From: Bacilli bacterium
GTDB taxonomy: Bacteria > Bacillota_I > Bacilli_A > RFN20 > CAG-826
Direction: 5' to 3'
Length of the DNA stretch: 64,000 nucleotides
Assembly: GCA_017540455.1 (NCBI GenBank)
Contig: JAFYAZ010000039.1
Location: 5,587 to 69,586 of the forward strand
Shown here: positions 675-29,062 of the stretch, in pieces
Numbering within the stretch: position 1 is the first letter of the stretch
How the letters are laid out: each line of letters starts with the position of its first letter
The notes under the pieces: model-generated
Told to the model about the DNA's origin: nothing
Seen by the model: only the letters and a program-made list of their open reading frames with translations
Database searches by the model: none
Translations under genes and position numbers: made by a program

Positions 675-1982
675 CTATAGTTTGGCGAGAAGTTTGGCTC
701 TTCTGACATAGTCAGTGACCTGGATCTTCGAGGTGCAGCTATAAGTGCAAAGACCGCATTCGATGCATTTGAGAGGCTCTAAGAGCTTGATCGTGTCTTT
801 GTCCATGGCCTTGACCGCGTTCATGATCTGAACCGGGCGAAGGTGGACTGGGCAAGAAAGGACGCAAGAGCCGCATCTGATGCAGTTCTCTTCCTTTGAT
901 TCATCATGGTCGAGGACGATGATCGAGGTGACGGTCTTCGTGCAGATGCAATCGTCCGATGGGATTGAGGCGCCCATCATCGGACCGCCGAGGATGAAGA
1001 CCTTCTTCCTCTCTGGGTGGACGTATCCACCGCATTTCTCGAGGATGTACTTCATTGGGGTGCCGACTCTGATCGAGAAGTTGGATGGGTATTTGATCGC
1101 ATCGCCGGTGACGGAGACGAAACGCTCAATGACCGGTTTGTTGTATTTGACGTTCTGAAGGAGGCCGACGACGGTGCTGACGTTGAAATCGACGATGCCG
1201 TATTCGCTTGGGAGATGGCCTGAGGCCACTTCGATGCCCGTCGCGCTCTTGATCATGGCGATTTCCCAGCCCTGTGGGTAGAAGTTGCCGACTGGGCAGA
1301 CCTTGATGCCGGAGTCTGGCATGGCGCGCAAGAACTCATCGTAGATGGCGATGATGTCTTTGTATTTGCTCTTGATGCAAAGCCTCGCGTCTTTGGTGCC
1401 AAAAGCCTGCTGAAGGAGCTTGATGCCTTCGATGACCTCTTCTGGCTTCTCAAGCATCATGCGCTTATCGGCGGTGATGTATGGCTCACATTCGACGCCG
1501 TTGATGAGGATGGTTTTGATCTCACGTCCTTTGGTGTCGAATTTGATGTAGGTTGGGAAGGAGGAGCCGCCTAAGCCGACTGAAGCGCATTCCTTGGCGA
1601 TTTGCATGAAGTCTTCTCTCGTGAGCTTAGCGATTTCCTCAGGGGTCCTCTCATGGACCACTGTCTCATCCTCTTCCTCTTTGAAGTCGTTTTTGATGTG
1701 GATGAAGTTCACCATCTTGCCAGAACGGTGAAGGTGTTTCTCGAAACCGAGGAAGGTGCCGCTGACGGTCGAATGGATCGGTTGGTCGAAGAATGGGCCG
1801 TGTCTCATGCCGATGACTTGGTACATCTTGACATGGTCCCCTTCTTTGATCGTTAGGTCCGCTTTCGGGCATCTTGCGTTCTCGAGGGCAATAAAAATAT
1901 CTTCTGGTTCTCCGATATCCACGGTCGGAAGGATCTCTAGAAGATTTCTTGTGTTCTCAATGTGTGTTGTCTTCGCAATCAT
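675..1982 (-). CDS. rnfC: Rnf electron-transport complex subunit C
   Basis: 435 aa. It has the GGSSFPTYIK and INGVECEPYITAD motifs and two C-terminal 4Fe-4S ferredoxin motifs (CIRCGSCVLSCP, CIECGLCTYSC), which is typical RnfC architecture. rnfD follows it. Confidence 0.85.
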   Translation of the reverse strand: MIAKTTHIENTRNLLEILPTVDIGEPEDIFIALENARCPKADLTIKEGDHVKMYQVIGMRHGPFFDQPIHSTVSGTFLGFEKHLHRSGKMVNFIHIKNDFKEEEDETVVHERTPEEIAKLTREDFMQIAKECASVGLGGSSFPTYIKFDTKGREIKTILINGVECEPYITADKRMMLEKPEEVIEGIKLLQQAFGTKDARLCIKSKYKDIIAIYDEFLRAMPDSGIKVCPVGNFYPQGWEIAMIKSATGIEVASGHLPSEYGIVDFNVSTVVGLLQNVKYNKPVIERFVSVTGDAIKYPSNFSIRVGTPMKYILEKCGGYVHPERKKVFILGGPMMGASIPSDDCICTKTVTSIIVLDHDESKEENCIRCGSCVLSCPVHLRPVQIMNAVKAMDKDTIKLLEPLKCIECGLCTYSCTSKIQVTDYVRRAKLLAKL

Positions 1983-2118
1983 TTTTGTCTCCAGCTTATG
2001 CTGGTCCGAATTTTGTACCCTAGTATTTTATCCTATCGGTAAAAAAGTAAAACCCTTTTATATCAATAAAAGAATAACGGTTTGCTTCTTTCCAAATATC
2101 TGACTTTTACTTAAGGAG

Positions 2119-2149
2119 AAAAAAGCCCCCTGCTTCTAAGGCAAAGGGC
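2119..2149 (-). terminator. intrinsic terminator downstream of the S41-like lipoprotein gene
   Basis: The minus-strand hairpin is GCCCUUUGC-cuuagaa-GCAGGGGGC, followed by a U-run (A-run 2119-2124 on +). Confidence 0.6.
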
Positions 2150-2176
2150 TATTTCATAAAGGTTTTGCAATGGTTT

Positions 2177-3880
2177 TTATTCCGCTATCGAGTTGATCGC
2201 GCTTAAGAGGGCCGCGCTATCGTAGAAGTCTTCGTAAGCAAAGTCGACGTCTGGTTCAATGCCATGCTCGATCGAGAGGAAATCCTTCTCGCCGTTTTCC
2301 TTTTCCCCGATGTGCCTCATCGTGTAGGTTGAGCTGATGGTAATGCCTGTGCCATCGGCTAAGACGAGGGAAAGGACGCTGCAGGTTCCACCGCCGGACT
2401 TCTTTCCGATGATTTTTCCTAGATTCATGTCTTTGAAGGTGCTGCTCATGAGGTTAGCGGCGCTGAAAGTGTTTATGCCGGTGAGGAGATACCAATCATA
2501 TTCGTCATATGCGTCTTCGTCCTCATAGTCGTCATCCCCATCGATATCGACGACATAGCTATCGGTGACGAATTCGTTATCTAATGTGTCATAAGTGGAT
2601 AAAGGAATCTTCTCATCGGTCAAAAAGCCAGCGACTTTTTCCATGGCCGCCAAAGAGCCACCGCCATTGAGGCTAAGATCAAGAACGATCTTATTGATTC
2701 CTCCATGGTTCTCAATCTGATTCATGCAGTAATGCATGTAGTGATATGAATCATATTTCCAAGCATCATCTTTCACGTTGTGATCTTTGTCATAGATCTG
2801 CGCGATCGTGCCTACGGAGAAAGAGTCTAAGGTGATGATGGCCATATCATCTTCGAACCTCACTTCTTCAGGACTCGTGAGCACCGCGTCCCTCAGTTCT
2901 TTCTGAATGGCTCTTCTGTCGTAGAACTCACCATAGAAATCACCGAAGTCATTTCTAGTGACTTTCGCTAAGTCAGGATCGCAATAGTAGGATGGGAGAT
3001 CGATTCTCGTATGGAGTTCGTCTAATTGCTTATAGACGATATCCTTGTATGCGGAGTAGTTATCTAGCGGTTTGGATGAATAAAGCTTATTGAGGGTGGC
3101 CTCATCAAGATAATCGATGAAATGCGTATACCCTTTCTCTTCTTTTAGGCCATAAAGAACATCAAAGGTGAAGCAAAGAGAATTGACCGCGGCTTCTCTC
3201 ATCGATTTGGTCTCTGCTTTCTTGTTGTCTACACAGTTATAGTACTGAGGAAGGTTCCTTACTTCCCCAACGGTGACGAAGATCTTTGACCCATTGTAGA
3301 AGAGATTTAGTCCACCCATTGCGCAGAAAAGGGTATTGAGGACGAAGAGAGGCAGCCAGACCATCTGATACCCATCTATGACTTCGAAGCCGTAATCATC
3401 GAGGTCAATCTCAAAAGTCGCGTCTCTATCATAAAAGTCGTTCGTTCTTTCTAAGTGTTCGTTGTAGTTGGTGCTAGAAGCTGCAGCGGAACACCAAAGG
3501 AATTCATAATAGCTAGCGGCCTTTATCGTGTTATCGGTGCTATTAAAAACAATCGGATGGGATTTTCGGTAATACAAAGTGAATATGTCATCGTAATAAT
3601 TGGTTTCATAGGAGAAATTGCCATAGTCGAAATACCCTCTGAAGGCATATAAGAACTCCCATAGTCTTACGTAAGGAACATCCTCGTATTCATTGAAATA
3701 ATGAACGTCAAGTTTGTCTCCGGCGATGTAGTAGTCATCCTCCGCCAGATTGACGATTTGCAGTTCTTTTACATAACAATCCGTTTCAGTGTCATCGACA
3801 AAGCCACAGCCAAAAGGGAAGAAGAAGCAGCTTGAAAGCAACAAAGAAGCAAGAGGGATAAGCAAGAGGCGTTTCTTCAT
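2177..3880 (-). CDS. lipoprotein, S41 (C-terminal processing/tail-specific) peptidase-like
   Basis: 567 aa. The signal is MKKRLLLIPLASLLLSSC (lipobox LSSC). The C-terminal half has LDLSLNGGGSLAAMEKVAGFL, TFSAANLMSSTF and IIGKKSGGGT, which resemble S41 peptidase core motifs (N.GG, SA.E, G..T.G.G). Confidence 0.55.
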   Translation of the reverse strand: MKKRLLLIPLASLLLSSCFFFPFGCGFVDDTETDCYVKELQIVNLAEDDYYIAGDKLDVHYFNEYEDVPYVRLWEFLYAFRGYFDYGNFSYETNYYDDIFTLYYRKSHPIVFNSTDNTIKAASYYEFLWCSAAASSTNYNEHLERTNDFYDRDATFEIDLDDYGFEVIDGYQMVWLPLFVLNTLFCAMGGLNLFYNGSKIFVTVGEVRNLPQYYNCVDNKKAETKSMREAAVNSLCFTFDVLYGLKEEKGYTHFIDYLDEATLNKLYSSKPLDNYSAYKDIVYKQLDELHTRIDLPSYYCDPDLAKVTRNDFGDFYGEFYDRRAIQKELRDAVLTSPEEVRFEDDMAIITLDSFSVGTIAQIYDKDHNVKDDAWKYDSYHYMHYCMNQIENHGGINKIVLDLSLNGGGSLAAMEKVAGFLTDEKIPLSTYDTLDNEFVTDSYVVDIDGDDDYEDEDAYDEYDWYLLTGINTFSAANLMSSTFKDMNLGKIIGKKSGGGTCSVLSLVLADGTGITISSTYTMRHIGEKENGEKDFLSIEHGIEPDVDFAYEDFYDSAALLSAINSIAE

Positions 3881-3920
3881 AGGATGATTTTACAATAAAC
3901 GCTTAACGAAAAACCATAGC

Positions 3921-3989
3921 AAAAAGCCCCCTACTACTTAAGTAAGGGGCTAATTCATGCAGGATTTGCTAGGGATTATTTGGCTTCAG
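3921..3989. repeat. 69-bp direct repeat, copy A (left boundary of inserted island)
   Basis: 3921-3989 matches 8481-8549 at a constant offset of 4560 nt, with 2 mismatches (3952 a/g, 3988 a/g). It contains the hairpin GCCCC-C-TAC...GTA-A-GGGGC with a flanking A-run, which is a minus-strand terminator. It also carries an orphan copy of the last codons plus stop (..EAK*) of gene 8536..11613. Confidence 0.9.
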
Positions 3990-3992
3990 GAT

Positions 3993-4217
3993 TTATAAGG
4001 TATCCGAATTGCCGCTTTTTTTGAGACGATCCTCATACAAAGAGAAAAGGTAGAGGGCCGATTCGCCATATAAACCCGTCTCATCGTCATCGAGCAAATC
4101 GACGACCTCGGAATCATAGAGTCTTTTTCTCGCTTCTTCGAGGCTTAAACCATATTTCTTTGCGATGAGCTCAATGGTCCCTGTTATCAATATGGTTTTT
4201 GCGATTGTGTGTCCCAT
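3993..4217 (-). CDS. small hypothetical protein (possibly DUF3791-like)
   Basis: 74 aa. Its start overlaps the stop of the upstream 105-aa gene by 1 nt. The pattern IELIAKKYGLSLEEARKRLYDSEVVDLLDDDETGLYGES resembles the small helical DUF3791-type proteins of Firmicutes. This is recalled from memory and not verified. Confidence 0.4.
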   Translation of the reverse strand: MGHTIAKTILITGTIELIAKKYGLSLEEARKRLYDSEVVDLLDDDETGLYGESALYLFSLYEDRLKKSGNSDTL

Positions 4218-4534
4218 TATTTGGTGCCTTCCGATAATCTTTTGCCAATGTATTCGTTGATTGCGTCCGCGGACATGCCGTGCATATCTTCGTAATCGTC
4301 TGATAGTTCTTTGATGACTCCATTTTCGTCGAGGTCTCTGAAAACCTCTCTGCTACTCTTTTCGGCAAAAGAGGCATATTGCTCAACGCACATAACGATG
4401 AATCTGTTAATTTCCTTATCAAGAACCATGTTGACGCGACTTTTTCCTCTAATAAGTGAACCTTCATTCAACGCTTTTTCACGTTTTTCAGCCTTCAATA
4501 AGAACGACCGATCATTGATTTTTCGTTCAGACAT
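4217..4534 (-). CDS. small hypothetical protein (possibly DUF3791-like paralog)
   Basis: 105 aa. The segment FIVMCVEQYASFAEKSSREVFRDLDENGVIKELSDDYEDMHGMS has the same helical pattern as its downstream neighbour. It is co-oriented with the helicase gene. Confidence 0.4.
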   Translation of the reverse strand: MSERKINDRSFLLKAEKREKALNEGSLIRGKSRVNMVLDKEINRFIVMCVEQYASFAEKSSREVFRDLDENGVIKELSDDYEDMHGMSADAINEYIGKRLSEGTK

Positions 4535-4624
4535 TTACATTTCCTATATTCACGTAGTAATGTTGGCATATTTTATTACGAATTTAAATACGCGATGCAT
4601 CAAATCATAGGGTCTTGAAGAGTT

Positions 4625-7600
4625 CTATCCCTTTTCTTTGTGATTACACCTTGGGAAATTATGGCATCCATAGAACGGACCATATTTACCTTTTCTTAGA
4701 ATCATGAAATCCCCACACGAAGGACATCTCTTATTTCTTAAAACGGCTTTTGCGTCATCGATCGTATAGTCACAATAAGGATAGTTCGAACAACCATAAA
4801 ACTCTTTACCATTTGACTCATTTATCCTTAAGACTAAACGTCCTTTCTTGCACCGCGGGCACGAAATATCAGTCCTCTTCTCCTCTTCCGTGTGTTTGCC
4901 ATTCAAAACGGCGCATTGATCTTTTATCTCCTCAAGGAAAATTGAAGGGTAGTACTCGTTTGCAATGATGTATGTATAGCTTCTAGTTCTCGTTAAGGCG
5001 ACGTACCATAGACGTCTTTCCTCCGCGTAATCGTATTCGCTCTTGTGACTCAAGACCAAATCAAGAAGCTCATCATCTTCCATCTTGTTTGGGAAACCAA
5101 TTCTGTCGTCGTTCGCGTTAAGAAGAATGACGTAATCCTCTTCGAGGCCTTTGGATCCATGAACTGTGCTGTAGGTTAAGTTGATATCAGGGAAGAAAGA
5201 GCACTTCAAAACCGTCTTGGTCTCGCTTGAAGCTTTGTAGTCAATGCGAATGCGGTTGTCTAACATGATGTCCTCAAGATCTCTGTTGTTTCTTCCTAAA
5301 ACAAGCACGTTCGCCTTTTCTTCTCTCCTAGAGATATCGCTTAGTACATCAAGGAAAGGTTCATACTTCTTTCTCCCTGTGTAATACATAATTTGGACGG
5401 GATTTGCTAAGTGTTTTGCGGAATTGATCTTCTTATCGTATTGTTCCGGATTCTTTTTTATGAACGGGCCAGCGATGTCTTGAAGTTCCTGTGAATTTCT
5501 ATGGGTGGTCGTTATCATCGTGATAGCCGAATCGCCAAAGTATTTTTCGAATTCCAAGAAGATACTTAGATCGCATCCTGAAAACCTGTAGATAGCTTGC
5601 CAATCGTCTCCGACTGCGAATAGCCGCGAATCGCCTTGCAAGATCAACCTCTTTAAGAACTTCATCCTACTAACGGAAATATCCTGAAATTCGTCGACGA
5701 TGATGTATTTATACTTGTAGCCTTTGCAGTTATTGAGCTCTTCAGTTGATTGAAGGATCATATCATCGAAGTCGATTTTTCCTTCTTTTGCCAAATAAGC
5801 GATGTAGTAGTCGTAAATATCTTTGACGATATCAAGGAAAAGGGACGCTCTATGCTTCTCATAAGCGTTTTTGAATGGAGAGCTCTTCAGTTTTTCAAAT
5901 CCGCTATTGTCCCTGTATGAGGCTTTGTATAAGCTCAGGAACGATCTGACTAAGTTAATAAAAGATTTGAAAGAGTATGTCTCATAGACGGAATTAAGGG
6001 CATTGAGGATTTCTTCGTCTGGAAGCGGGTGAAACTCCACTCCCCTTTCTTTCAATTGCGATTCAAGCTTTTCAAAGACGGTGCCATCTTCAAACTCGTA
6101 CGAATATGTTTCTATGCAGTCGGTCTGATATACCTTGTGGATGCCTCTTTTCCAAATCATGGAATTCACATATTGAATAGCTTCTTCCCCGGCATACTGC
6201 GAGGCCTTGCCATCCTTATCAACTCCGTAATGTTCATGATAAATTGGATAATCCTTTAATTTGAAATCTGGCATGTATTGCCTTTTGTCCAGTGTAGAAA
6301 CGTCTTTTTCATAAGGTGCTTCGTATGTGTATTTGATGCCGTTTATGAAATACCAGTTCGCAATAGCCATCTCTTCGAATGACTTAACGAGCTCCTTTTT
6401 GAGTGTCTCTTTAGAGGCAACATTATTAGACAGAGTGAGCAATTGATCTTTAAGAGTTGTGAAATCTAGGCTCTTTAGGTCTTCAAAAAGATCGCCTTCG
6501 TTCTCGTATTCTTTGTCATGCTTCATCGTGGAAAGATACAAGCCGTAGTACATAAGGATGGTTTGAAGCATGTGCGGCCTGTTTTTCATCTCTTCCCTGA
6601 AATAGGCTTCTATGATGGCTTTGTATTGATCCTCCACCATGAATGTGTGGTTACGTGCGTCTTTTAAGATATCGAGACCGATTTTATGGAATGTTCCTAC
6701 TGTTAGCCTCTGGTCTATGGCTGACACTTTTTTCTGGAGATCATCAGCAGATTTTTTTGAATACGAAAGAAGGAGGATATCATTAGGATTCACACCCTTT
6801 TTCTTCAAGAGATATTCGACCTTGCCACATATGGTAAGAGTCTTTCCGCTTCCGGCCCCCGCCACAACAAGAACTGATTTTTCATCAGTCAAAACGGCCT
6901 TTCTTTGTTCATCGTCGAGAAAGCGGCCATTAATGTCATCAAATAGTTGGTCCTTTTTGGCTCGCTCAAAGTATTCTTGGTTATGTTTTTTTACTGCTTC
7001 ATCGAGGTTTGTATGCCTTTCAAAAGCCTCGGATAAATACTCCTTGAAAGTTATTTTCTTCAGCAAATCCGCACTTTTTGATGCAGTTTCACGCTGTCTC
7101 TCACGATCTACATATTCATCTTCGGAAAAAGCAAAGAGTTCTCTATGCTGACAGAGAAGATCGTATTGGTGACAAATTTCTTCGTAACCGATTCTCACCT
7201 TCTCAATGCCACTTAAAAAGGAGGAGTATGACTTCTCGGTAATTCTATATTTCTTAAGCAAATCTGCTACTTCAAGACATTCCGAAAAGAATTCTTTGTC
7301 GGTGTGATTAGGGTTTTTGATGAATGTTTCTAAGTTCCACCACATGACCGCTTCTCTAATGCGGCCCACTTCTTTATTGTGCTCAGCTACCTTTTCAGAA
7401 AAAGCGCCATATTTCGCCTTATCTTTTTTGTACTTTTTGGGAGGAAGCAGCGTGATCTCTTCATAGATGGAAACTATTTTGGGGTCAGTCTCTTCGTTAA
7501 CGATTTCCAAAAAACGGCCCTGTTTCTTGATGTTTCTAAAATATGGCCTGAAAACAGTAAGAACTTTGAAATATAGCTTTAGCCGTCCAAAGATATTCAA
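4625..7600 (-). CDS. helicase IV/UvrD-like SF1 DNA helicase with embedded nuclease-like motif and two C-terminal topoisomerase-type C4 zinc ribbons
   Basis: 991 aa. SF1 motifs are Walker A VVAGAGSGKTLT, motif II IIVDEFQDIS, motif III VGDDWQAIYRFSG, TVHGSKGLEEDYVILL and YVALTRTRS. There is an internal YMPDFKL...YHEHYG (PD-(D/E)xK-like) segment. The C-terminus has CPRCKKGRLV..FYGCSNYPYC and CPSCGDFMIL..FYGCHNFPRC. Confidence 0.8.
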   Translation of the reverse strand: MNIFGRLKLYFKVLTVFRPYFRNIKKQGRFLEIVNEETDPKIVSIYEEITLLPPKKYKKDKAKYGAFSEKVAEHNKEVGRIREAVMWWNLETFIKNPNHTDKEFFSECLEVADLLKKYRITEKSYSSFLSGIEKVRIGYEEICHQYDLLCQHRELFAFSEDEYVDRERQRETASKSADLLKKITFKEYLSEAFERHTNLDEAVKKHNQEYFERAKKDQLFDDINGRFLDDEQRKAVLTDEKSVLVVAGAGSGKTLTICGKVEYLLKKKGVNPNDILLLSYSKKSADDLQKKVSAIDQRLTVGTFHKIGLDILKDARNHTFMVEDQYKAIIEAYFREEMKNRPHMLQTILMYYGLYLSTMKHDKEYENEGDLFEDLKSLDFTTLKDQLLTLSNNVASKETLKKELVKSFEEMAIANWYFINGIKYTYEAPYEKDVSTLDKRQYMPDFKLKDYPIYHEHYGVDKDGKASQYAGEEAIQYVNSMIWKRGIHKVYQTDCIETYSYEFEDGTVFEKLESQLKERGVEFHPLPDEEILNALNSVYETYSFKSFINLVRSFLSLYKASYRDNSGFEKLKSSPFKNAYEKHRASLFLDIVKDIYDYYIAYLAKEGKIDFDDMILQSTEELNNCKGYKYKYIIVDEFQDISVSRMKFLKRLILQGDSRLFAVGDDWQAIYRFSGCDLSIFLEFEKYFGDSAITMITTTHRNSQELQDIAGPFIKKNPEQYDKKINSAKHLANPVQIMYYTGRKKYEPFLDVLSDISRREEKANVLVLGRNNRDLEDIMLDNRIRIDYKASSETKTVLKCSFFPDINLTYSTVHGSKGLEEDYVILLNANDDRIGFPNKMEDDELLDLVLSHKSEYDYAEERRLWYVALTRTRSYTYIIANEYYPSIFLEEIKDQCAVLNGKHTEEEKRTDISCPRCKKGRLVLRINESNGKEFYGCSNYPYCDYTIDDAKAVLRNKRCPSCGDFMILRKGKYGPFYGCHNFPRCNHKEKG

Positions 7601-7616
7601 AGCTAATCACCTCAAG

Positions 7617-8354
7617 TTACTCGTTTATCATTCCTTTTTTGTAGAACTTGAGCTTTCTGCTCATGGAAGCGTTGATGTCCATGATGTCTTTCTCTTCTAA
7701 GCAGATGACGGTGACTTTGAGCTCCTTATACACCTTCATCTTGTAATTCTTCGATTTGGTGTATTCTTTGTTGCTCTCGTTGTATCCCCAGTATTCGATA
7801 TAAACATCATCTGTGTCGTCTCCATAGCCAGGGAGGCAGAAATCAGGATGAAGGTCATGATTCTCATTGGCGTCAATCGGAAGCTTTTTCTCGTAAGCGT
7901 GAGGAATGTTATGGTCAAAGAGCCAGTTGTCGATGATCATCTCGGACTTTGATTTAACGATGTGGCCGTCGGTGCAAGTGAACTTGCCCTCGTAGGAATC
8001 GTCAAGGATGGTGATGTCCTTGCATTTGTTGATCTCGACAAGCAACTTCTTATCGGCATATTTCTTGTAACAGGAAACACAGAAAAGGAATCCTGGCTTG
8101 GTTTCTTTACCGCAGGCAATGCATTTGGCAACACCCTTTTGCTCCTGAATAGGTTTTTCCTCTTTAGGCTCGACATAATCCTTGTTGAGGACTTTGCCAG
8201 TCGCTTTATCGATGAAGAGGCCTTTTTCGTTGACCACAATCTTTTCGGCCTTGAGTTCGTCGGCATGCTTGGCGCAAAGCCTGTCTTTGCGGGCATTGCC
8301 CATATAGACTCTCGTAGGTTGTCCACAGATAGGGCACTTCAACTCTTCCTTCAT
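7617..8354 (-). CDS. zinc-ribbon protein with C-terminal PD-(D/E)xK (Vsr/DUF559-like) nuclease-fold domain
   Basis: 245 aa. It has CPICG...C..H and CIACG...CVSC zinc-ribbon pairs. The C-terminal SKSEMIIDNWLFDHNIPHAYEKKL...HPDFCLP...VYIEYWGY matches the S.SE / YE / PDF / hEhhG pattern of restriction-endonuclease-fold domains. A GGGAGG RBS precedes the start, which lies 16 nt upstream of the helicase gene. Confidence 0.6.
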   Translation of the reverse strand: MKEELKCPICGQPTRVYMGNARKDRLCAKHADELKAEKIVVNEKGLFIDKATGKVLNKDYVEPKEEKPIQEQKGVAKCIACGKETKPGFLFCVSCYKKYADKKLLVEINKCKDITILDDSYEGKFTCTDGHIVKSKSEMIIDNWLFDHNIPHAYEKKLPIDANENHDLHPDFCLPGYGDDTDDVYIEYWGYNESNKEYTKSKNYKMKVYKELKVTVICLEEKDIMDINASMSRKLKFYKKGMINE

Positions 8355-8480
8355 AACGATATGCCTCCCTTGGTTGGCTTAATGGAGAACTTAAGTATCT
8401 CCATTGTTGTTTTGGTTTTCTGGAAATATATTAGCAAAAAGGAGGCGACGATTAATAGGTTTCCTTACAATCCGTTTAGA

Positions 8481-8549
8481 AAAAAGCCCCCTACTACTTA
8501 AGTAAGGGGCTGATTCATGCAGGATTTGCTAGGGATTATTTGGCTTCGG
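8481..8549. repeat. 69-bp direct repeat, copy B (right boundary of island; functional 3' end and terminator of gene 8536..11613)
   Basis: See copy A. This copy includes the stop codon at 8536-8538 and the last four codons of the 1025-aa gene. Confidence 0.9.
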
Positions 8550-11500
8550 TTGTTTTGGAGCCGTAGTTAAGAACCTTGACGAAGTCTTCCTCAGTCATTG
8601 GACGACCGAACAAGTAACCTTCAAGTCCTTTGGCGCCAAGAGAGATGGCAAGATCCCTTTGCTCAGCGTTCTCGATACCGGTGACGTAGATGTCGAAGTC
8701 GTTTCTCATCGCTGCATCTAGGAAGCGTGAGAAGTTAGCAAGCTCGTTTTCGTTCGTGGCCGCATTCCAGATGAGAGATCTCTCGGTCTTGATGATATGG
8801 ACGCCGAAGGATTTAAGGACCTCAAGAGGAACCTTATCTGGCGTGTGGTCGACACATTCGAAGACAACGCCAAGAGGCGTGAGCTCGGACATGACCTTCT
8901 TGATGGCCTCTTCCTCGTCGAGGAAGAAGGCGCTATTGATTTCAAGATGCATGTACTCACGTGGGAAGCGGTTCCTTTCGAGAATGGCTTTGACCTTCTC
9001 TGGGAATTCTGGGTCCCTAAGGGAGTCGATGGAAAGATACATCGAAAGACACTTGATGCCGACGGCTTTGAAGATGCCTGAACCATATAAGCTATAGAGC
9101 TGACCCATCATCGAGATGGCGCCGATATCGACGCGGGAGACGAGTTTTTCTTTGTTCGCGATAGGAATGAATTCACGAGGAGCGATCGGGAGTTTGTCAC
9201 GTCCATAAAGGGCGGAACGGATATCGCCTCCGATGACCTTGAGGGTGCCGCAGTCGACGATTGGCTGAGTGAGGATCGGAAGGGCGTCAGCGTCAAGCGT
9301 AGCCTGGAGGATATCGAGGATGTACTCGCTTCTCAGGGCTTTTCTTGGGTGGCGGTTTGCGACCTCGACGACATAGCCTGGGCCATAGGTCCTCTCACTT
9401 CTGATGAGCTCGTCTTTGATGGTCTGGACCATTTGCTTGGTGGTGACGATTTCAGATGGGTATGCGACGGCGCAGAAAGCGTAGTTGGCGTTGTATCTGA
9501 ATTCCCTGGCTTCAAGAGGATGGGAAAGGATCTCCGCCGCTTCTTCGACGAAGTCCATCATCTTGATCTTGGTGTAGCCCTTAAGGAGGAAGGAGATGCT
9601 ATATGTGTCGAACCTGTAAAGGAGTTCGCCATAGCCAGCATCCTGGAAGTTGGCGACGATGGAGGACATAAGCGAGTTCGCATCGGACTGCGGGAGCTCT
9701 CTTAAGGCCGCCTCGTAATCGACGAGGGAGCAAGAGACGATATAACCGCGGGCGGTCTTGGCTTTGAGCTCACGGTTGACATCGATTGAAAGAGCCTGGG
9801 CGTTCTTGATGAGGAGGGAATCATCGACAAGATGGCTTCCGGCGACAAGGCCTTGGGTCGTGCCACGCTCGATCATGATGGTCGATTCGTCGTTATTCGC
9901 TCCACGGTACTGGAGAATCGAGATCTGGGATTCGGATGGGCCGATGCTTGGGATGACACGGTGATCAGCGCCGTATCTAAGAGGGCAATGGCTGCATGGT
10001 TTGTCATGGCCTGTACGAAGTACCTTGTAGCAGATATCGCCTTCGTGAGCGCCTGGGAAGGCGTGCTTAAGGTTATCCGACATGTAAGTGATCGTATGGG
10101 TCGGACGGTCGACGGAATAGAGGTATCTGCTGGTTCTAGAGGCAAGGTTATCGAGAAGGTCATGGAGGGAATCGTCTCTCTTAGCGAGGATGTTGCCGAT
10201 GAGCATGTTGCTGAAGAAAGAGACCGCGGTCATGAAGTCTTCTTTGCTAGAAATCGAGGTTCCACTTCTCTTATTCGGAGAAAGCATGTAGATGAAACCG
10301 TAGTCGTTATTTGGGGAATCAAGGGTGGCGATGAAGAAAGACTCCATTCCTAAGGAAAGGATTGGCTCTGCGAGTTCTTTTGGAAGATCGGTGCGGGCGT
10401 TGCCGACGAACATCGTGTCTTTCTTCGCTTCGTTCACAAATGGGCCGACGAATGATAGATGGAGAACGGAACCGAAACGGGAGAAGCCTTTGTTTCCTTC
10501 GACACGAGCAGTCTCAAAGAGGAGACGGTAGTCTCTTGTCTTCTCACCATATTCATAGACGCCGGCGACTTCAAAATCGCTTTGGGTCATGAGCCACTGG
10601 ATGGCGTTCTTCAGGGCTTCGATCTCGCCTGCGTAATCCTTCGCGTGCTTGATCTCGTATTCCCATTTCTCGAAGTTGGCGAGGAAGAGAATGCGTTTGG
10701 AGGATTCGCTTAAGATGCGGTGAGGATAGTAGACGTCTTTGACGCCGTAGCTGAGATTGACTTCCCCTTCTTCTTTGAGGGCTTTCTCAGCTTCATCTAA
10801 GAAGTTATTGAGGGAGCAATACGGATAGATGACTCCGCCGATTTTGGCATGGACAAACTTCTCAACTGAAGTCGACTTATCGATCTTCAAAACGTTGAAA
10901 TTCGTGACAAATCCCTCACAAACCGTCTCTAAACCGAGGAAGGATTCGACGTTGAAGATATAAAGGGCGAGGGTCTTTTCATCGTATTTGCCAAGCATCG
11001 AATGAGGGAAGGTTTCTCTCACTTTGGCGGTCAAGGCTTCGAAGTCTTTTTCTTCGTAGGTCTTCGCGCCCTCTAAAGAGATCAAGAGGAGAGCGCTTCG
11101 ATATGAATCGTTCTTCTGGACTTCTTTCTTTAAGTTCTCGGTGAATGTCTCTTTGTCATAGACAAGACCCTGTTCGATGTCTTTATTGATAGCCTCGTCG
11201 CTAGCTTTGCCAACATAGACAAGACGGTAGTTGGAATAGTCGGCGATCGCCTGGTTCATCTGCTGCTGAATCTCAGTGAAAGCAGGGAGAACCTTGTCAT
11301 AGTCCTTGTTGATGGTCAAGAAGTTGCCATCGGCGAAGCTTCTGATCTGGGAACTGATGTCTTTGGCGAGCTTATCACCTTTCCTTGTGTAATCAAGGCC
11401 AAGATGGATGATGGTGACCGCAACCGTCAAAGCGGAGATGAGGAGGACGCCAAAACTCACCCATAAAAGGATTTTGTTCTCAAAATAGTAGGCAAATGGG

Positions 11501-11613
11501 ATGCCAACGGCCGAAATGACGAATAAGCCAAGGAAGACGGCGCCGACCACTGTCGAAGCGCGGTTCTTAAGGAAGGCCTTAAGATTGACGAGTTTGGTTT
11601 TGTTCTTTTTCAT
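8536..11613 (-). CDS. membrane protein with degenerate GGDEF-like region(s), a Cys-rich sensor segment and a degenerate (probably non-catalytic) EAL domain; candidate c-di-GMP receptor
   Basis: 1025 aa with two N-terminal TM helices. The C-terminal EAL-fold is recognisable (LTQPIVD..., REFIPIA, LEGYLFGRPM). Its key motifs are substituted: EAL becomes SAL, ELTE becomes LEINS, DDFG becomes VDHTP, and EGVE becomes TGIE. There is no GGDEF/GGEEF signature. A CYKV..PCSHCP motif sits mid-protein. Confidence 0.6.
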   Translation of the reverse strand: MKKNKTKLVNLKAFLKNRASTVVGAVFLGLFVISAVGIPFAYYFENKILLWVSFGVLLISALTVAVTIIHLGLDYTRKGDKLAKDISSQIRSFADGNFLTINKDYDKVLPAFTEIQQQMNQAIADYSNYRLVYVGKASDEAINKDIEQGLVYDKETFTENLKKEVQKNDSYRSALLLISLEGAKTYEEKDFEALTAKVRETFPHSMLGKYDEKTLALYIFNVESFLGLETVCEGFVTNFNVLKIDKSTSVEKFVHAKIGGVIYPYCSLNNFLDEAEKALKEEGEVNLSYGVKDVYYPHRILSESSKRILFLANFEKWEYEIKHAKDYAGEIEALKNAIQWLMTQSDFEVAGVYEYGEKTRDYRLLFETARVEGNKGFSRFGSVLHLSFVGPFVNEAKKDTMFVGNARTDLPKELAEPILSLGMESFFIATLDSPNNDYGFIYMLSPNKRSGTSISSKEDFMTAVSFFSNMLIGNILAKRDDSLHDLLDNLASRTSRYLYSVDRPTHTITYMSDNLKHAFPGAHEGDICYKVLRTGHDKPCSHCPLRYGADHRVIPSIGPSESQISILQYRGANNDESTIMIERGTTQGLVAGSHLVDDSLLIKNAQALSIDVNRELKAKTARGYIVSCSLVDYEAALRELPQSDANSLMSSIVANFQDAGYGELLYRFDTYSISFLLKGYTKIKMMDFVEEAAEILSHPLEAREFRYNANYAFCAVAYPSEIVTTKQMVQTIKDELIRSERTYGPGYVVEVANRHPRKALRSEYILDILQATLDADALPILTQPIVDCGTLKVIGGDIRSALYGRDKLPIAPREFIPIANKEKLVSRVDIGAISMMGQLYSLYGSGIFKAVGIKCLSMYLSIDSLRDPEFPEKVKAILERNRFPREYMHLEINSAFFLDEEEAIKKVMSELTPLGVVFECVDHTPDKVPLEVLKSFGVHIIKTERSLIWNAATNENELANFSRFLDAAMRNDFDIYVTGIENAEQRDLAISLGAKGLEGYLFGRPMTEEDFVKVLNYGSKTTEAK

Positions 11614-11624
11614 GGCCTTTCTCC

Positions 11625-12356
11625 TTATTCGTTGACATCCTCAGTGCGGGCCACGAGGATTCGGGTGATGATCTTGCCGATTGTCGGCATCATCTCTAAG
11701 CCCGTGCGGATGTAGTTGATTCTTTCGCGTTCTTTGCCCATTTGCATCGCGACGCCTTTGATGGTCAAAAGGGCGGTGTTGTTAAGATGGCAAACCATCG
11801 CGATAGCGGCGCTTGTGTTGTCGTAAGCGCGCATGTTCTCTTCTTGGACGAGGAAGTGGTTTTGGACGATGGTTGAGACCTTATTCGGCATGAAATAGAA
11901 AGAGGAACCAGAAAGAAGGAAGCCTCTTTGGACGTATCTCGTCGTCATGAGATAAGCGTTCTTCTCAGCGCGGTCATTGATAAGGTTATCGGCGACGAAG
12001 AATGGGTCTCTTCCTGGGATTTGGCCATAGACGGCCTCTTTGTTATCGGTGAAATCGATGTCAGCGTAGAAATAACGGTCGGCGATGAATAAATCCCCTT
12101 GGCGGAGTTCGTCGCTGAAGCTATAGACCGAGCCGACATTGAAGACCATGTATGGGTCGAACTTCTCGATGATGAGGGTCATGATGATGCCGGCATCAAC
12201 AAGAGATGGTCCTGTCGCGGCAACGATGCAATCCTCACGGAAAATGCTGCCCTGATAGACTTTGAAGCCTCCGGTCAGGGTCACTTCTTTCGGATTCCCC
12301 ATCTTCGCTTTGAAATAGAGGATGTCGTCGCTAGTCGTACCGATTATGGCGATCAT
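11625..12356 (-). CDS. MTA/SAH nucleosidase (Pfs/MtnN, PNP_UDP_1 fold)-like protein, divergent
   Basis: 243 aa. It aligns by eye with E. coli MtnN: IAIIGTTSDD vs IGIIGAMEEE, YGQIPGRDPFFVAD vs YGQLPGCPAGFKAD, and SAAIAMVCH vs ATAIAHVCH. The region of the catalytic ISD(V) reads VAMQMG. Its start overlaps the stop of the upstream EAL gene (ATGA). Confidence 0.55.
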   Translation of the reverse strand: MIAIIGTTSDDILYFKAKMGNPKEVTLTGGFKVYQGSIFREDCIVAATGPSLVDAGIIMTLIIEKFDPYMVFNVGSVYSFSDELRQGDLFIADRYFYADIDFTDNKEAVYGQIPGRDPFFVADNLINDRAEKNAYLMTTRYVQRGFLLSGSSFYFMPNKVSTIVQNHFLVQEENMRAYDNTSAAIAMVCHLNNTALLTIKGVAMQMGKERERINYIRTGLEMMPTIGKIITRILVARTEDVNE

Positions 12357-13927
12357 TTGGCTACCTCCCCTGCTTTCTTCTTCTCGAATGGGTTATTGCT
12401 AAGGAATCTCTGGAATTCGAATTCGCCAAGCGGGCGGCTATAGTAATAGCCTTGGACGGCGTCGATGCCAAGTTCCTTGACGATGTTCTTCTGGATCTCG
12501 GTTTCCACGCCTTCGGCGATGGTCTTCATGCCTAAGGAATGTGAGATGTCATTGATGCAACGGACAAGGTCGCGGCTCTTCTGGTCAAGCTCAACCTCAT
12601 CGATGAAGGACTTATCGATCTTAAGGGTGTCGAAAGGAATCTTCTTTAAGGAAGAGAAAGCCGAATAGCCCATACCGAAGTCATCGATTGAGGTATCAAG
12701 GTCAAGGGCTTTGATCTTTCTGATCATGGCTGAGACGAAGACGGCGTCTTGAGCGGCCATGGATTCGGTGAGCTCAATCTCAATCCATTTAGGATTGATC
12801 TCGTATTTCTCCATCGTTTCCTTATAGAAAGAGAGGATATCTGGCGCAAGAGCGGTTTTTCTGGAAAGGTTGATGGAGACCTTAGGGATACGTTTTCCTT
12901 CGGCCTTCCACTTCTTCATGTTCTTGCAGACCTGCTCGAAGACGTATTTATCGACCTCGATGATACGGCCGGATTGCTCAGCGAACGGGATGAAGAGGGA
13001 TGGAGGGAGAAGACCACGGGATGGGTGGTTCCATCTGACAAGGGCTTCAGCGCCGAAGAAGGTTTCGTCATGAAGGTCGAATTTAGGCTGATAGAAGACT
13101 TGGAGCTGCTCTTCGTTGATGGCGTTGCCTAGTTCGCTAGAAAGGGAACGTTCGCCTTCATCATCCATCATGAATTCCTCGCTATAGACGATGACGTCGC
13201 TAGAGATACGGGATGAGAGGTTATAGGTGCCGGCGATTTGGGCTTTGCTATAGACGTCTTCGAAAGGCTGGCCATGATGGGCGTGATAGACGCCGCAAAG
13301 GATAGCGACATCAGGCATTGTGCCATCTTTCTCGAGGAGATAATTGACTCTTTGGCAGATGGACTGGAGCTCTTCGATGAAAAGGGATTCCTCCCCTCCT
13401 TTTTTGATGAGGATCCAACCCTTGGTTGGGGAGAAACCATAAGCGTAGTTCTTATTGTCTTTGCCAACCGCCTCATGTATCGCGGCATATAAAGCGTCGT
13501 TGATGATACGCGGTCCTTTTTGGCCATAGATGCTACGGAGTCGGGCGATGTTTCTGACATCGAGGACGGCAAAGAGGGATTCCGCTTTCCTTCTAAGCAT
13601 CATGTAGCGATAGTTCTGCTTCAAAGCAGATTCATTGAAGATATAGATCTCCTTCGTGAAGTTGTCTTTGGCGATATCTCTATCTATCGCCGACATCGCA
13701 AGGACGTTCTGGTAGAGAAGGGAGACGACGATGAGAACGGCGTTGACGATGATGGTGACATAAAGGCTGACGATGAAACCAGGCTTGTAGTAGCCTCTGA
13801 TCATGATCGTGTAAAGGATGATTGAGGCGATGGTGTTGATGCCTAAAAGGAGATAGATGATATAGGCGTTCCTCTGGTGGGTCTTATAAGAGAAACGGGA
13901 AGCGAAAAAGTTAAGTAATCGTCTCAT
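12353..13927 (-). CDS. membrane-bound c-di-GMP phosphodiesterase (degenerate GGDEF + canonical EAL)
   Basis: 524 aa with two N-terminal TM helices. The GGDEF position reads GFSPT, so it is degenerate. The full EAL signature set is present: QPKF, EALVRW, SINLS, EIELTES, DDFGMGYS, KIDKSF, EGVET and QGYYYSRP. Its start overlaps the sipW-like stop. Confidence 0.8.
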   Translation of the reverse strand: MRRLLNFFASRFSYKTHQRNAYIIYLLLGINTIASIILYTIMIRGYYKPGFIVSLYVTIIVNAVLIVVSLLYQNVLAMSAIDRDIAKDNFTKEIYIFNESALKQNYRYMMLRRKAESLFAVLDVRNIARLRSIYGQKGPRIINDALYAAIHEAVGKDNKNYAYGFSPTKGWILIKKGGEESLFIEELQSICQRVNYLLEKDGTMPDVAILCGVYHAHHGQPFEDVYSKAQIAGTYNLSSRISSDVIVYSEEFMMDDEGERSLSSELGNAINEEQLQVFYQPKFDLHDETFFGAEALVRWNHPSRGLLPPSLFIPFAEQSGRIIEVDKYVFEQVCKNMKKWKAEGKRIPKVSINLSRKTALAPDILSFYKETMEKYEINPKWIEIELTESMAAQDAVFVSAMIRKIKALDLDTSIDDFGMGYSAFSSLKKIPFDTLKIDKSFIDEVELDQKSRDLVRCINDISHSLGMKTIAEGVETEIQKNIVKELGIDAVQGYYYSRPLGEFEFQRFLSNNPFEKKKAGEVAK

Positions 13928-20997: not shown

Positions 20998-21110
20998 ACC
21001 CAGTTGCCCACTGAATCTAGAGTACTGAACTCCAGGCAACTGGCTACCACGCATATATTGCGAGGCCCTGTAGCTTTGCGTCGCCATGTTTCCATGGGTT
21101 TGCTATACAC
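20998..21110 (-). promoter_or_regulatory. c-di-GMP-I (GEMM-I) riboswitch aptamer
   Basis: The minus-strand RNA is GCGUGUAUAGCAAACC-CAUG-GAAA-CAUG-GCGACGCAAAGCUACAGGGCCUCGCAAUAUAUGCGUGGUAGCCAGUUGCC. It contains GCAAACC, a GAAA-capped stem, the near-invariant GACGCAAAGC, the second helix GCUAC...GUAGC and a trailing CAGUUGCC. This matches my memory of Vc2 and Bacillus GEMM-I sequences. Confidence 0.8.
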
Positions 21111-21114
21111 GCAT

Positions 21115-25248: not shown

Positions 25249-25406
25249 GCTTTTATTCCTCTTTTTCTAGGTATTAGTTTGGGTTTTGGGGATACCTTTG
25301 TCAAGGTAAGACGGATTTGGAAAGATGGGGTTTTGTGGGTGAAATATGAAAAAATACCCTGCAAAACAAGGTATTTCATTCAAAAAGAACAAAGATGCGA
25401 CGTATC

Positions 25407-26402: not shown

Positions 26403-26535
26403 ACGATTACCCCTTTCGCAAACGGTGAGATTATAGAATTTTTCGCGCGAAATAATCAAGCCGTTTAATAGGCTTTTTTTCGAGTTTGATTGTTTGCGGT
26501 ATCAAATAAAAAATACCCTGCAAAACCAAGGTATT

Positions 26536-26760
26536 TTATTCTTTATCTTCTTCTGCCTTTTCCTCAACGGGGGGCTCAGGTTTGACGTAGTTCTTTGGGC
26601 GTTCCATGAGGAAGATGAAGGTCAGGGTCGTGGCCTCGTATTTCCACATCTTGAGGGTCCAGCCTTCTTTGAAATACTCATTGGCCTCCTTTAGGGCTCC
26701 AGCGTATTCCCTATTTCTGATGAAATAGTAATCGTATTCGTTTTTCTTCTTCTTGTTCAT
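26536..26760 (-). CDS. small hypothetical protein
   Basis: 74 aa counted from ATG 26760 (MNKKKKNEYDYYF...). The start overlaps the exoA stop as ATGA, suggesting translational coupling. Confidence 0.5.
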   Translation of the reverse strand: MNKKKKNEYDYYFIRNREYAGALKEANEYFKEGWTLKMWKYEATTLTFIFLMERPKNYVKPEPPVEEKAEEDKE

Positions 26761-28863: not shown

Positions 28864-29062
28864 TGGAAGGCCTCAAATTAATATTAGGTAAAAACGCCAC
28901 AAAAATCAACCATATTTTACATTTGTGCGGTGTTACGTTTTATGTTTGTGTTGTATTCCGCTTTACGTTTGTGCTGTTATACACTTTACAGATTCACAAG
29001 AATTCCAAAATGATACTATCCCCTTGTTCCCTAAGGGAACCTAATAAGTCTATAATTATGTG

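Follow-up and report, generated by a model that had tools for sequence, protein, structure and literature searches.

How defence and accessory genes turn over at chromosomal hotspots that lack mobile-element genes is an open question (cf. Hochhauser et al., 2023, PMC10121019). It is raised here by a 64-kb stretch of DNA (64,000 nucleotides; the window) in which a duplicated gene tail brackets a 4.5-kb insert between an EAL-domain protein gene and the Rnf operon. A testable answer is proposed. The stop-plus-terminator tail of a core gene, copied with each insertion, would act as the recombination handle through which cassettes are lost, regained, reordered and exchanged, and each cassette would stay transcriptionally insulated throughout.

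The repeat and the genes it brackets

The conserved left flank of the site is the 1025-aa EAL gene (8536..11613, minus strand), whose 3′ tail is the repeat, here called R. The right flank is an S41-peptidase lipoprotein gene (2177..3880, minus strand; GC 0.445). R occurs at 3921-3989 and 8481-8549 with 2 mismatches in 69 positions, at 3952 and 3988 (A/G in both cases), and ungapped similarity spans 71 nt at 97% (3917-3987 and 8477-8547). Each half of R is found exactly twice in the 64 kb, whereas shuffled sequences lead one to expect 0 occurrences, and R is by a wide margin the best direct repeat in a self-BLAST of the window. Both copies encode the same minus-strand hairpin, with an 11-bp stem, a 5-nt loop and a T-run (minimum free energy about -22 kcal/mol), and R folds as this plain hairpin behind an unpaired 5′ part of 25-40 nt. 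The proximal copy B (8477..8549, minus strand) consists of the last codons and stop of the EAL gene (..TTEAK*), a 25-nt spacer, the terminator hairpin and the T-run. Copy A (3917..3989, minus strand) lies between a 74-aa gene and the S41 promoter region. It carries the terminator and an orphan EAL tail (..PEAK*, CCT GAA GCC AAA TAA) that begins a few bases past the 74-aa stop. The EAL codons in copy A show that the EAL tail was its source. The preliminary description had reported the two 69-bp repeats, their two differences, the shared hairpin and the split into a real and an orphan gene end, and all of this holds.

Identity between repeats stops at the T-run, beyond which the sequence varies by cassette, and a promoter scan found no site inside R. 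Rfam at gathering thresholds returned nothing at R; its sole match in the window is a c-di-GMP-I riboswitch at 21032-21114. R has the hairpin and intergenic position of an ordinary dispersed terminator repeat (REP-, BIME-, RUP-, Correia- or MITE-like), of which two copies might stand here by coincidence, a possibility that the preliminary description had raised. This reading has next to no probability. Across the window and all fetched related loci, an nhmmer model of R matches only in the EAL-RnfC interval. Scanning metagenome contigs for exact patterns turned up this locus alone, viral contigs yielded no pattern of R or of its relative R′ (below), and copy A includes EAL coding sequence.

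The 4.5-kb insert has a GC content of 0.410 (41.0%) against 0.474 (47.4%) for the window, within the lowest 2% of 4.5-kb windows, which puts a figure on the AT-richness that had been judged by eye. It begins directly after the T-run of copy B with the 5′ non-coding leader of a nuclease-helicase cassette (8355..8476, minus strand). This leader is 86-93% identical to its counterpart in L009, L015 and L033 (handles of related loci), where it also stands behind an R copy. The next gene (7617..8354, minus strand) encodes a 245-aa protein that has CxxC zinc ribbons at its N-terminus and a restriction-endonuclease-like domain at its C-terminus. The protein matches the PADLOC model PDC-S69 (E=8.5e-27) and HEAT_CxxC_PDDEXK (E=4e-7). 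Its Cys pairs and D171/E187/W189 are conserved. A fold search with its AF2 model (pLDDT 79.6) gives only weak matches, to PD-(D/E)XK nucleases (E>=0.07). Homologues sit in defence islands, mostly directly upstream of a large SF1 helicase gene (one, in L037, is solo), and adjoin DarTG, Wadjet, AbiE and AAA_21/RloB in unrelated defence islands of other bacteria. In the window, the partner is a 991-aa UvrD/helicase IV-like helicase (4625..7600, minus strand) with two C-terminal topoisomerase-type zinc ribbons. It matches GajB-like UvrD models and, below the cut-off, helicase IV (313 bits). The helicase allele of L033 has only 71% DNA identity to it. The nuclease-helicase pair is a candidate defence module, the hotspot's cassettes are for the most part candidate phage-defence genes, and the cargo as a whole matches candidate defence families only (PDC-S69, PDC-M13 and GajB-like UvrD models).

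The remainder of the insert is mosaic. A fragment of an AAA_14/DUF4143 cassette (4460..4613, minus strand) comprises the initial ~25 codons, the promoter region and one 'GATTTGATGCA' unit; L026, L015 and L009 match it at 67-73% identity upstream of their AAA_14 genes and at the start of these genes. The fragment is fused to a DUF3791 gene, so that a 105-aa chimeric ORF (4217..4534, minus strand) joins the AAA_14 N-terminus to the DUF3791 domain at about 4445-4436, with about 6 nt of microhomology. The chimera lacks the HTH domain of the intact 150-168-aa HTH-DUF3791 genes found in L002, L005, L030 and L033. The last gene, a 74-aa DUF3791-like gene (3993..4217, minus strand), closes a PDC-M13-like module whose middle gene, DUF3990 (ART clan), is missing here. 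The DNA of the 74-aa gene is 98% identical to that of L033 and 95% to that of L030. The four co-oriented genes described earlier are indeed all on the minus strand, but the 105-aa ORF is a chimera. The insert is a decayed composite of the nuclease-helicase pair, the AAA_14 cassette fragment and a remnant of the DUF3791 module.

The reported lack of mobility genes is borne out more widely. Integrase and transposase domains are absent from the insert and from 20 other ORFs of the 64-kb window. No insert gene, flanking gene or further window ORF among those 20 matches Phage_integrase or another recombinase. No tRNA or tmRNA that could be an integration target was found in the window, and no terminal inverted repeats at the insert ends. 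A PHROGs search of the insert gave only a generic helicase match, and neither BLASTN searches with the insert in plasmid and phage collections nor TBLASTN of the 245-aa protein against phages gave a match.

Empty, occupied and reordered sites in relatives

The comparison with relatives rests on metagenome assemblies, namely contigs of rumen Bacilli MAGs. Near-isogenic relatives hold a precise empty site with a single R copy, the counterpart of copy B, as an insertion had led one to expect. The array is empty in L003 and L026-L029. Between L003 and the occupied L009/L015, the flanks are 94-95.5% and 90% identical, and the one R copy in L003 can be aligned with each of the two in L009/L015, the overlap being 57 nt. 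Between the empty L027 and L030, the flanks are 96.8, 93.8 and 94.6% identical, and the overlaps are 66 nt at R and 48 nt at R′. The EAL terminator abuts the S41 gene in these empty sites and in that of L026, which is the arrangement predicted for the locus without its insert. An assembly artefact was ruled out, since independent assemblies, made with different assemblers from different samples, show the same architecture; the 69-nt repeat is also shorter than the k=141 used for several contigs.

Occupied sites differ in content and order. The 245-aa gene fills the array of L009 and L015-L017, and L002 holds HTH-DUF3791 plus the 74-aa gene. The full three-gene module (HTH-DUF3791, DUF3990 and the 74-aa gene) occurs in L030/L031 and in L005; L013 shows the first two genes, its contig ending inside the DUF3990 gene. 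L033 has the array [DUF3791 module]-R-[245aa + helicase]-R, in the opposite order to the window. Copy A's junction (the 74-aa stop, ATCCT/ACGACT and (G)AAGCCAAATAA) recurs in L002, L033 and L030. The duplicated length differs among events, from about 48 to 69 nt.

These alleles revise the view of a single insertion that duplicated its target. The insertion polymorphism and the target-derived repeat stand. The single event does not, because relatives hold the parts separately and in opposite order, each followed by its own R copy, and the window version is internally rearranged. Nor does a transposase-type target-site duplication fit, because the duplicated length varies. A DDE or other transposon was rejected on the lack of transposase domains, the lack of inverted repeats at the ends and the long, variable duplication (48-69 nt here and about 36 nt at a second locus, below).

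The same alleles bear on the proposal that nothing was inserted, the occupied arrangement being ancestral, the repeat an old local duplication and the relatives different by deletions only. Recombination between direct repeats readily yields precise deletions, and the 3′ junction of the DUF3791 module, common to four lineages, points to one old event. Yet the two modules occur in opposite orders, and the same module type stands at site 1 in L030/L013 and at site 2, the neighbouring S41|RnfC junction, in L005. Cassette GC is low, the 74-aa gene is 98% identical to that of L033 whereas the adjoining S41 gene is 81% identical, and the homologues of the 245-aa protein lie in unrelated defence islands of other bacteria. 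A history of deletions only is thus decidedly improbable.

Both the repeats and the flanks show traces that fit exchange between lineages. Within an array, R copies differ at 0-1 of 48 positions, against 4-12 between lineages. In L033 and L002, the R after the DUF3791 module is closer to the copy of other genomes than to its own array, which means that cassette and R were imported as a unit. The window is 95% identical to L033 in EAL and 98% in the 74-aa gene but 81% in S41 and in RnfC; to L030 it is 92% identical in EAL, 81% in S41 and 97% in RnfC. As far as DNA identity tells, these relationships are incongruent across R and R′.

Site 2 adds to the earlier account a third, diverged repeat copy just past the S41 gene. 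This copy, R′ (2116..2186, minus strand), is 69% identical to R and contains the S41 stop codon and a terminator; a compensatory change of one stem pair (A-U to G-C) sets it apart from R. It serves as the repeat unit at the S41|RnfC junction, where the right flank is rnfC (675..1982, minus strand), with which the conserved Rnf operon starts. In L030 and L026, two R′ copies enclose an AAA_14/DUF4143 cassette or what remains of one; in L015, only the RnfC-side copy remains, after the AAA_14 gene. By these alignments, site 2 behaves as site 1 does, with its own repeat variant, which also tells against a single-event insert. The S41 gene may itself be an older cassette, because it is bracketed by the similar R and R′.

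A 350-aa lipoprotein gene at 25.3-26.5 kb is likewise flanked by a duplicated stop-plus-terminator unit, of about 36 nt, which ranks second among the direct repeats of the window. The lipoprotein gene is absent in the relative L036, where the intergenic sequence is too diverged for a clean one-copy empty site. Flanking duplications were looked for, and none found, around 245-aa/helicase modules in other genomes and around AAA_14/DUF4143 genes elsewhere.

How cassettes may enter and leave

With slightly more than even confidence, the EAL-to-Rnf interval is read here as a cassette hotspot, an integrase-free array, in an uncultured rumen Bacilli clade, at which R is copied with each insertion and then serves as portable homology. 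The unit R is some 57-69 nt long; it begins at roughly the EAL stop codon and closes with the T-run. Accessory DNA would insert directly after the terminator, R being copied each time, and the resulting array would read EAL-R-[cassette]-R-[cassette]-R-S41-R′-RnfC, the last ORF of every cassette stopping a few bases before the resident terminator copy. Two direct R copies could then recombine and delete a cassette precisely, presumably as a circle with one R. For the whole insert, the predicted circle junction is ...ACCTTATAAATCCT-GAAGCCAAATAATCCCTAGCAAATCCTGCATGAAT[C/T]AGCCCCTTACTTAAGTAGTAGGGGGCTTTTTT-CTAAACGGATTGTAAGG... Such a circle, or linear DNA from a relative, might re-enter at any R copy, and crossovers in the flanking core genes would swap whole arrays between lineages. 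The window would represent a late, decayed state, in which the nuclease-helicase pair is followed by an AAA_14 fragment illegitimately joined to the 3′ part of the PDC-M13-like DUF3791 module, and from which the internal R copy or copies were lost, the two outer ones being left. Because the window has no internal R copy, its gene order requires later deletions to be assumed.

We infer that recombination at R is general homologous recombination. This accounts for the shuffling but not for the first R-X-R structure. A speculative origin for the first duplication is one-sided-homology (homology-facilitated illegitimate) recombination, in which the anchor would end at the T-run and the foreign end would join by microhomology slightly upstream. 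Illegitimate joins do occur at the locus, because the chimeric ORF has such a junction. Further points count against the mechanism. A length of 50-70 bp is close to the shortest that RecA recombines efficiently. The duplicated unit of at least four cassettes, moreover, begins near a stop codon and always ends at the T-run, a regularity that looks more orderly than random illegitimate joins. An RNA or retro-copy origin of the cassettes, an idea prompted by the end of the duplicated unit at the transcript 3′ end, was set aside; the leaders suggest that promoter-like upstream sequence was kept.

Alternatively, R could be an att site and the cassettes integrase-less integrative elements, like CIMEs or pseudo-SCC. 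A site-specific recombinase encoded at another place in the genome, or by a helper element, would mobilise them in trans, and they would accrete in tandem at the EAL 3′ end. The direct repeats with the target gene's 3′ end, the precise empty sites, the tandem arrays of variable order with a repeat after each unit, and the constant right boundary at the T-run would all follow from this, and the hairpin supplies a pair of 11-bp inverted arms. However, a recombinase is found neither in the insert and 20 other ORFs of the 64 kb nor among the genes called with Pfam matches in related hotspot loci, and R is missing from viral contigs. At each site it is the local variant, R or R′, that is duplicated. 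The hairpin varies in loop and stem, with compensatory change, which is expected of a terminator and not of a core recognised by a protein. Tyrosine recombinases have overlap regions of 6-8 bp, more than the 5-nt loop offers. The att-site reading is therefore unlikely, though it keeps some weight.

The order in the duplicated units also invites the thought that the clade's intrinsic terminators are targets of an unrecognised insertion process, which would place foreign genes exactly after the T-run, duplicate the stop-to-T-run unit and build arrays in a manner like CRISPR adaptation. If so, the signature at the two adjacent sites and at the 25.3-26.5 kb locus would be the footprint of one dedicated mechanism, not of general recombination. 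This is improbable. Its explicit form, in which dedicated machinery makes staggered cuts around the 3′ UTR (cf. repeat duplication by Cas1-Cas2 or casposon target-site duplication), is very improbable. The duplicated unit is alike in at least five events, starting near the stop codon and ending at the T-run; the signature is the same at two sites of the locus and at a separate locus in the window; and the arrays formally resemble repeat-spacer arrays. But the duplications are of unequal length (about 36 nt at the second locus, 48 to 69 nt at the hotspot), no candidate enzyme was found, no conserved motif is common to the cassette ends, and the repeat beside the DUF3791 module of L033/L002 arrived with its cassette, not from the local target.

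Comparison with known systems

The proposed cassette array resembles integron arrays and CALINs, which are integrase-less attC clusters, in its co-oriented small cassettes, the structured repeat after each, the strain-variable order and content, and a cargo rich in toxin-antitoxin and defence-type genes. It differs in the repeat, which is copied from the neighbouring gene's tail and folds into a simple 11-bp terminator hairpin behind a long unpaired 5′ spacer, in contrast to a long imperfect palindrome. Copies A and B of R and the R′ copy were searched with their flanks, on either strand, for attC cores (RYYYAAC...GTTRRRY) by regex, and no paired cores turned up. IntI, absent by definition in CALINs, was not found in the window insert, the flanks or 20 further ORFs.

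Integrase-less islands with att repeats include the CIMEs of Streptococcus and the pseudo-SCC and composite SCC elements at the rlmH/orfX 3′ end. They share with the R locus direct repeats that contain a core gene's 3′ end, recombinase-less tandem units split by repeat copies, and precise empty sites. CIME and SCC systems need a known site-specific recombinase (Int, CcrAB) in trans, whereas none was identified for R; the units at R are also much smaller (0.8-4 kb), and there are two adjacent sites, each with its own repeat variant.

Homology-facilitated illegitimate recombination was reportedly described in natural transformation by de Vries and Wackernagel and by Prudhomme and colleagues, both in 2002. 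It could explain why the first repeat copy ends where conservation ends, at the T-run, why the second copy starts at variable positions and how the illegitimate junction in the window insert arose. It is usually described with deletion of recipient DNA and not with a short duplication, and in this it differs from the R locus.

Defence hotspots without identifiable mobilisation, such as hotspot #37 of E. coli and the core defence hotspots of P. aeruginosa (Hochhauser et al., 2023, PMC10121019), likewise occupy a fixed spot between core genes, with variable content that matches defence or candidate-defence models and without detectable mobile-element genes. They are not reported as organised by iterated copies of a flanking gene's terminator (PMC10121019), whereas the repeat architecture at the R locus suggests a concrete mechanism.

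The promoter-early stem-loop (PeSL) cassettes of the T4-type phages RB49 and phi1 offer a precedent for the proposed array. In these phages, recombination at stop/stem-loop modules rearranges the order of ORFs and gives rise to mini-circles (Arbiol et al., 2010, PMC2839356). Both systems flank small accessory ORFs with a short intergenic repeat that has an upstream stop codon and a terminator with a G/C stem. In both, close relatives differ by insertions, deletions and replacements bounded by the module, and at the R locus permutations occur too. Neither has a known dedicated recombinase, the terminator insulates each cassette, and circles with one module are the proposed vehicle. The differences are that the PeSL repeat contains a strong sigma-70 promoter, whereas R stops at the T-run and its promoters lie outside; that PeSLs are dispersed over large hyperplastic regions of the phage genome, whereas R occupies one chromosomal hotspot; that R is visibly copied from the tail of the flanking core gene; and that mini-circles were demonstrated for PeSLs, while for R arrays they are predicted. 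By their own statement, the PeSL authors lacked evidence for this in cellular organisms (PMC2839356). If confirmed, the R locus would be a cellular counterpart of a process described only in T4-type phages, and any genome collection could be screened for a simple sequence signature, accessory genes lying between duplicates of the upstream gene's 3′ tail.

The duplicated terminator

Self-BLAST of the window returned one direct repeat well ahead of all others, a 69-nt unit (R) with copies on the minus strand at 3921-3989 (copy A) and 8481-8549 (copy B). As the preliminary description stated, the copies are identical save for two positions and contain the same terminator hairpin; the differences lie at 3952 and 3988. 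Ungapped similarity spans 3917-3987 and 8477-8547, and each half of R occurs twice in 64 kb compared with zero times in shuffled sequences. In gene orientation, R opens with the last codons and stop (..TTEAK*) of the 1025-aa EAL-domain gene (EAL; 8536-11613, minus strand), followed by 25 nt of spacer, a hairpin with an 11-bp stem, and a T-run. The structure is that of a canonical intrinsic terminator. Copy B supplies the true EAL stop and copy A carries an orphan ..PEAK* just past the stop of a 74-aa gene, also as first described. A third, diverged copy (R', 69%; 2116-2186, minus strand) includes the stop and terminator of the S41 lipoprotein gene (2177-3880, minus strand). The hairpins of R and R' differ by one compensatory pair change, as expected of a working terminator.

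The right boundary of every R copy is the end of the T-run, beyond which the sequence is cassette-specific. On the left, the repeat begins at the upstream stop codon or just ahead of it, ~48-69 nt short of the T-run end, and the last ORF of each cassette ends 0-12 nt before that boundary. R is target-derived, since the distal copy holds EAL codons and the junction between S41 and RnfC (675-1982, minus strand), hereafter site 2, duplicates its own variant, R'. The preliminary description had considered a common dispersed, REP-like repeat. This was rejected: an nhmmer model built from all copies found no match outside the EAL-RnfC interval in the window or any fetched locus, an exact-pattern scan of metagenome contigs returned this locus only, and no R was found in viral contigs.

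The S41 start codon lies only ~7 nt past an extended -10-like motif, TGTAAAAT, and lacks a Shine-Dalgarno sequence (3865-3916, minus strand), with equivalents in the related loci L003, L026, and L027. This arrangement suggests that the S41 transcript may be leaderless, beginning right after R.

Cassette genes and a chimeric junction

The 4.5 kb between the R copies have a GC content of 0.410 versus 0.474 for the whole window, within the lowest 2% of 4.5-kb windows. The AT-richness first judged by eye is therefore real, and the genes of the region are co-oriented, as noted then, all on the minus strand. The reported lack of mobility features also held: no integrase or transposase domain was detected in the insert or in 20 further window ORFs, and neither terminal inverted repeats nor a tRNA gene was found.

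A 245-aa protein (7617-8354, minus strand) has CxxC zinc ribbons and, at its C-terminus, an endonuclease-like domain. It matches PADLOC PDC-S69 (E=8.5e-27), and its Cys pairs and D/E/W positions are conserved. Its AF2 model (pLDDT 79.6) gave weak fold matches only, to PD-(D/E)XK nucleases. In other gut and rumen bacteria, its homologues occur within defence islands, next to DarTG, Wadjet, AbiE, and AAA_21/RloB. The adjacent gene (4625-7600, minus strand) codes for a 991-aa helicase of the helicase IV/UvrD-like type, carrying two zinc ribbons of the topoisomerase type. Because a large SF1 helicase gene immediately follows the gene for most 245-aa homologues (the L037 copy stands alone), the two genes form one module.

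The 74-aa gene (3993-4217) and a 105-aa ORF (4217-4534), both DUF3791-type and on the minus strand, match the PADLOC candidate PDC-M13, reported to be abundant in rumen MAGs (PMC13356809). The intact module in relatives is HTH-DUF3791/DUF3990/DUF3791, the start of which is seen in L013; DUF3990 is a member of the ADP-ribosyltransferase clan (PMC7955679). Neither DUF3990 nor the HTH domain is present in the window copy, and the 105-aa ORF is chimeric: 4613-4460 shows homology to the beginning of an AAA_14/DUF4143 cassette (its upstream region and first codons), 4435-4216 shows homology to the 3' portion of the HTH-DUF3791 gene, and the two are joined at ~4445-4436 at a few bases of microhomology. 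The window version holds internal illegitimate junctions.

AAA_14/DUF4143 genes are preceded by 2-4 tandem ~33-nt units containing CC(T)T(C/A)CGATTTGATGCA (window 4460-4613; L026 11190-11360; L030 11830-11960; L015 12590-12650; L009 4730-4800), one of which is left inside the window's insert. Upstream of other AAA_14 copies, the tandem motifs are different ones (window 28870-29000; L034 7100-7170). These units may be operator- or iteron-like sites. In L005, a divergent (~68%) HTH-DUF3791/DUF3990/DUF3791 module (7057-8257) occupies site 2 rather than the EAL-S41 junction (site 1). No clear R' duplication accompanies it, and AAA_14-type GATTTGATGCA units come after it.

Array variants in related genomes

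The locus is carried by uncultured rumen Bacilli (MAG labels, Bacilli or Erysipelotrichaceae), and an identical 10-kb contig occurs in one ENA metagenome. In gene orientation, L027-L029 read EAL-R-S41-R'-RnfC, the direct abutment of the EAL terminator and S41 that had been predicted for an insert-free locus; site 1 is also empty in L003 and L026. Single cassettes occur in L009 and L015-L017 (EAL-R-[245aa]-R-S41) and in L002 (EAL-R-[HTH-DUF3791, 75aa]-R-S41). L030/L031 read EAL-R-[HTH-DUF3791, DUF3990, 74aa]-R-S41-R'-[AAA_14 remnant]-R'-RnfC, and L013 reads EAL-R-[HTH-DUF3791, DUF3990 ...] up to the contig end. In L033, EAL-R-[150aa, 74aa]-R-[246aa, helicase]-R-S41-R'-RnfC, the module order is reversed relative to the window, and each module is followed by an R copy.

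Clean empty sites are seen between near-isogenic loci. The lone R of L003 aligns with both R copies of L009/L015, with flanks 94-95.5% and 90% identical. L027 and L030 give the same result at both sites; the overlap is 66 nt at R and 48 nt at R', and the flanks are 94-97% identical. The single-copy sites sought since the preliminary description thus exist, and its target-duplicating insertion is right in outline but too simple. The region appears to be an array of cassettes that are bounded by terminators and lack an integrase, now in a decayed and composite form. The aligned loci demonstrate a hotspot at which cassettes vary exactly in presence and in order, the 3' tail of the upstream gene is repeated after each cassette, and no recombinase lies nearby.

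The second-best direct repeat of the window (25349-25381 versus 26508-26541; 34 nt, 94%) belongs to a duplicated unit of ~36 nt (25346-25381 and 26506-26541), which consists of the stop, hairpin, and T-run from the end of an 83-aa gene and brackets a lone 350-aa lipoprotein gene without a Pfam match (25407-26459, minus strand). L036, with a neighbouring exonuclease III 89% identical, lacks the 350-aa gene, and its intergenic sequence is too diverged for a clean one-copy site; L034 has an AAA_14 gene and feoAB at the corresponding site. This second stop-plus-terminator duplication suggests that the process is not confined to one locus. The third-ranked direct repeat stems from two adjacent ~367-aa paralogues (21621-22721 and 22773-23879, plus strand), which lack a Pfam match and have N-termini resembling signal peptides. 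A c-di-GMP-I riboswitch (21032-21114, minus strand; 56.5 bits, E=2e-8) precedes two ORFs without a Pfam match (19769-20797 and 18694-19755), ~10 kb from two EAL-domain genes (8536-11613 and 12353-13927).

Proposed recombination at R and known systems

Over 48 comparable positions, R copies show 0-1 differences within an array and 4-12 between lineages. The exceptions are L033 and L002, where the R after the DUF3791 module has 2-4 differences from its counterparts in other genomes and 6-8 from its own array, so the module and its 3' R copy arrived together. Across R and R', the identities of the genes do not agree: the window matches L033 at 95% (EAL), 98% (74-aa gene), 81% (S41), and 81% (RnfC), L030 at 92% (EAL), 81% (S41), and 97% (RnfC), and L002 at 88% (EAL) and 92% (S41). 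Core-gene groupings also conflict (window 675-13927 versus L002, L026, L027, L030, and L033), RnfC being 97% identical to L027/L030 but 81% to L033, and EAL 95% to L033 but 92% to L027/L030. These conflicts indicate that homologous exchange among lineages is frequent and that its breakpoints fall between genes. Four lineages share a homologous 3' junction of the DUF3791 module, which speaks for a single old event. However, the position of this module relative to the nuclease-helicase module varies among genomes, which flanking-gene crossovers could not produce; the variation requires either exchange at R or independent insertion.

We infer that recombination between direct R copies, most simply of the general homologous kind, deletes cassettes and probably frees a circle with one R. 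Circles, or linear DNA from relatives, would re-enter at any R copy. Such exchange would yield empty sites, single-cassette arrays, permuted order, cassette-linked R variants, and concerted R copies within arrays. More speculatively, the first R-X-R may have formed by one-sided-homology (homology-facilitated illegitimate) recombination, in which the homologous anchor would end where conservation ends, at the T-run, and the foreign end would join by microhomology a few tens of bases upstream. Under this model the right boundary would be fixed and the left one variable, and the AAA_14/DUF3791 junction shows that microhomology joins do occur here. However, the unit from stop codon to T-run recurs in at least five events, more regularly than random joins would lead one to expect, and a site-specific recombinase acting in trans or a dedicated terminator-targeting process may be responsible. 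The cassette-array architecture is well supported by the comparative data; the proposed enzymology and origin of the duplication are not.

The closest working analogue is PeSL-mediated shuffling in T4-type phages, in which stop/promoter/stem-loop repeats flank ORFans and recombine to give indels and mini-circles; no recombinase is known for this shuffling, for which the authors report having no evidence in cells (PMC2839356). Unlike PeSL, R has no internal promoter, occurs only at a single chromosomal hotspot, and derives from the core gene that flanks it. Integrons and CALINs have a similar layout, but R failed the attC test and was rejected as an attC site. CIME and pseudo-SCC elements share repeats at 3' gene ends and tandem units, but no recombinase was identified here. 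The locus may belong to the class of defence hotspots without recognisable mobilisation (PMC10121019), for which the cassette array suggests a mechanism.
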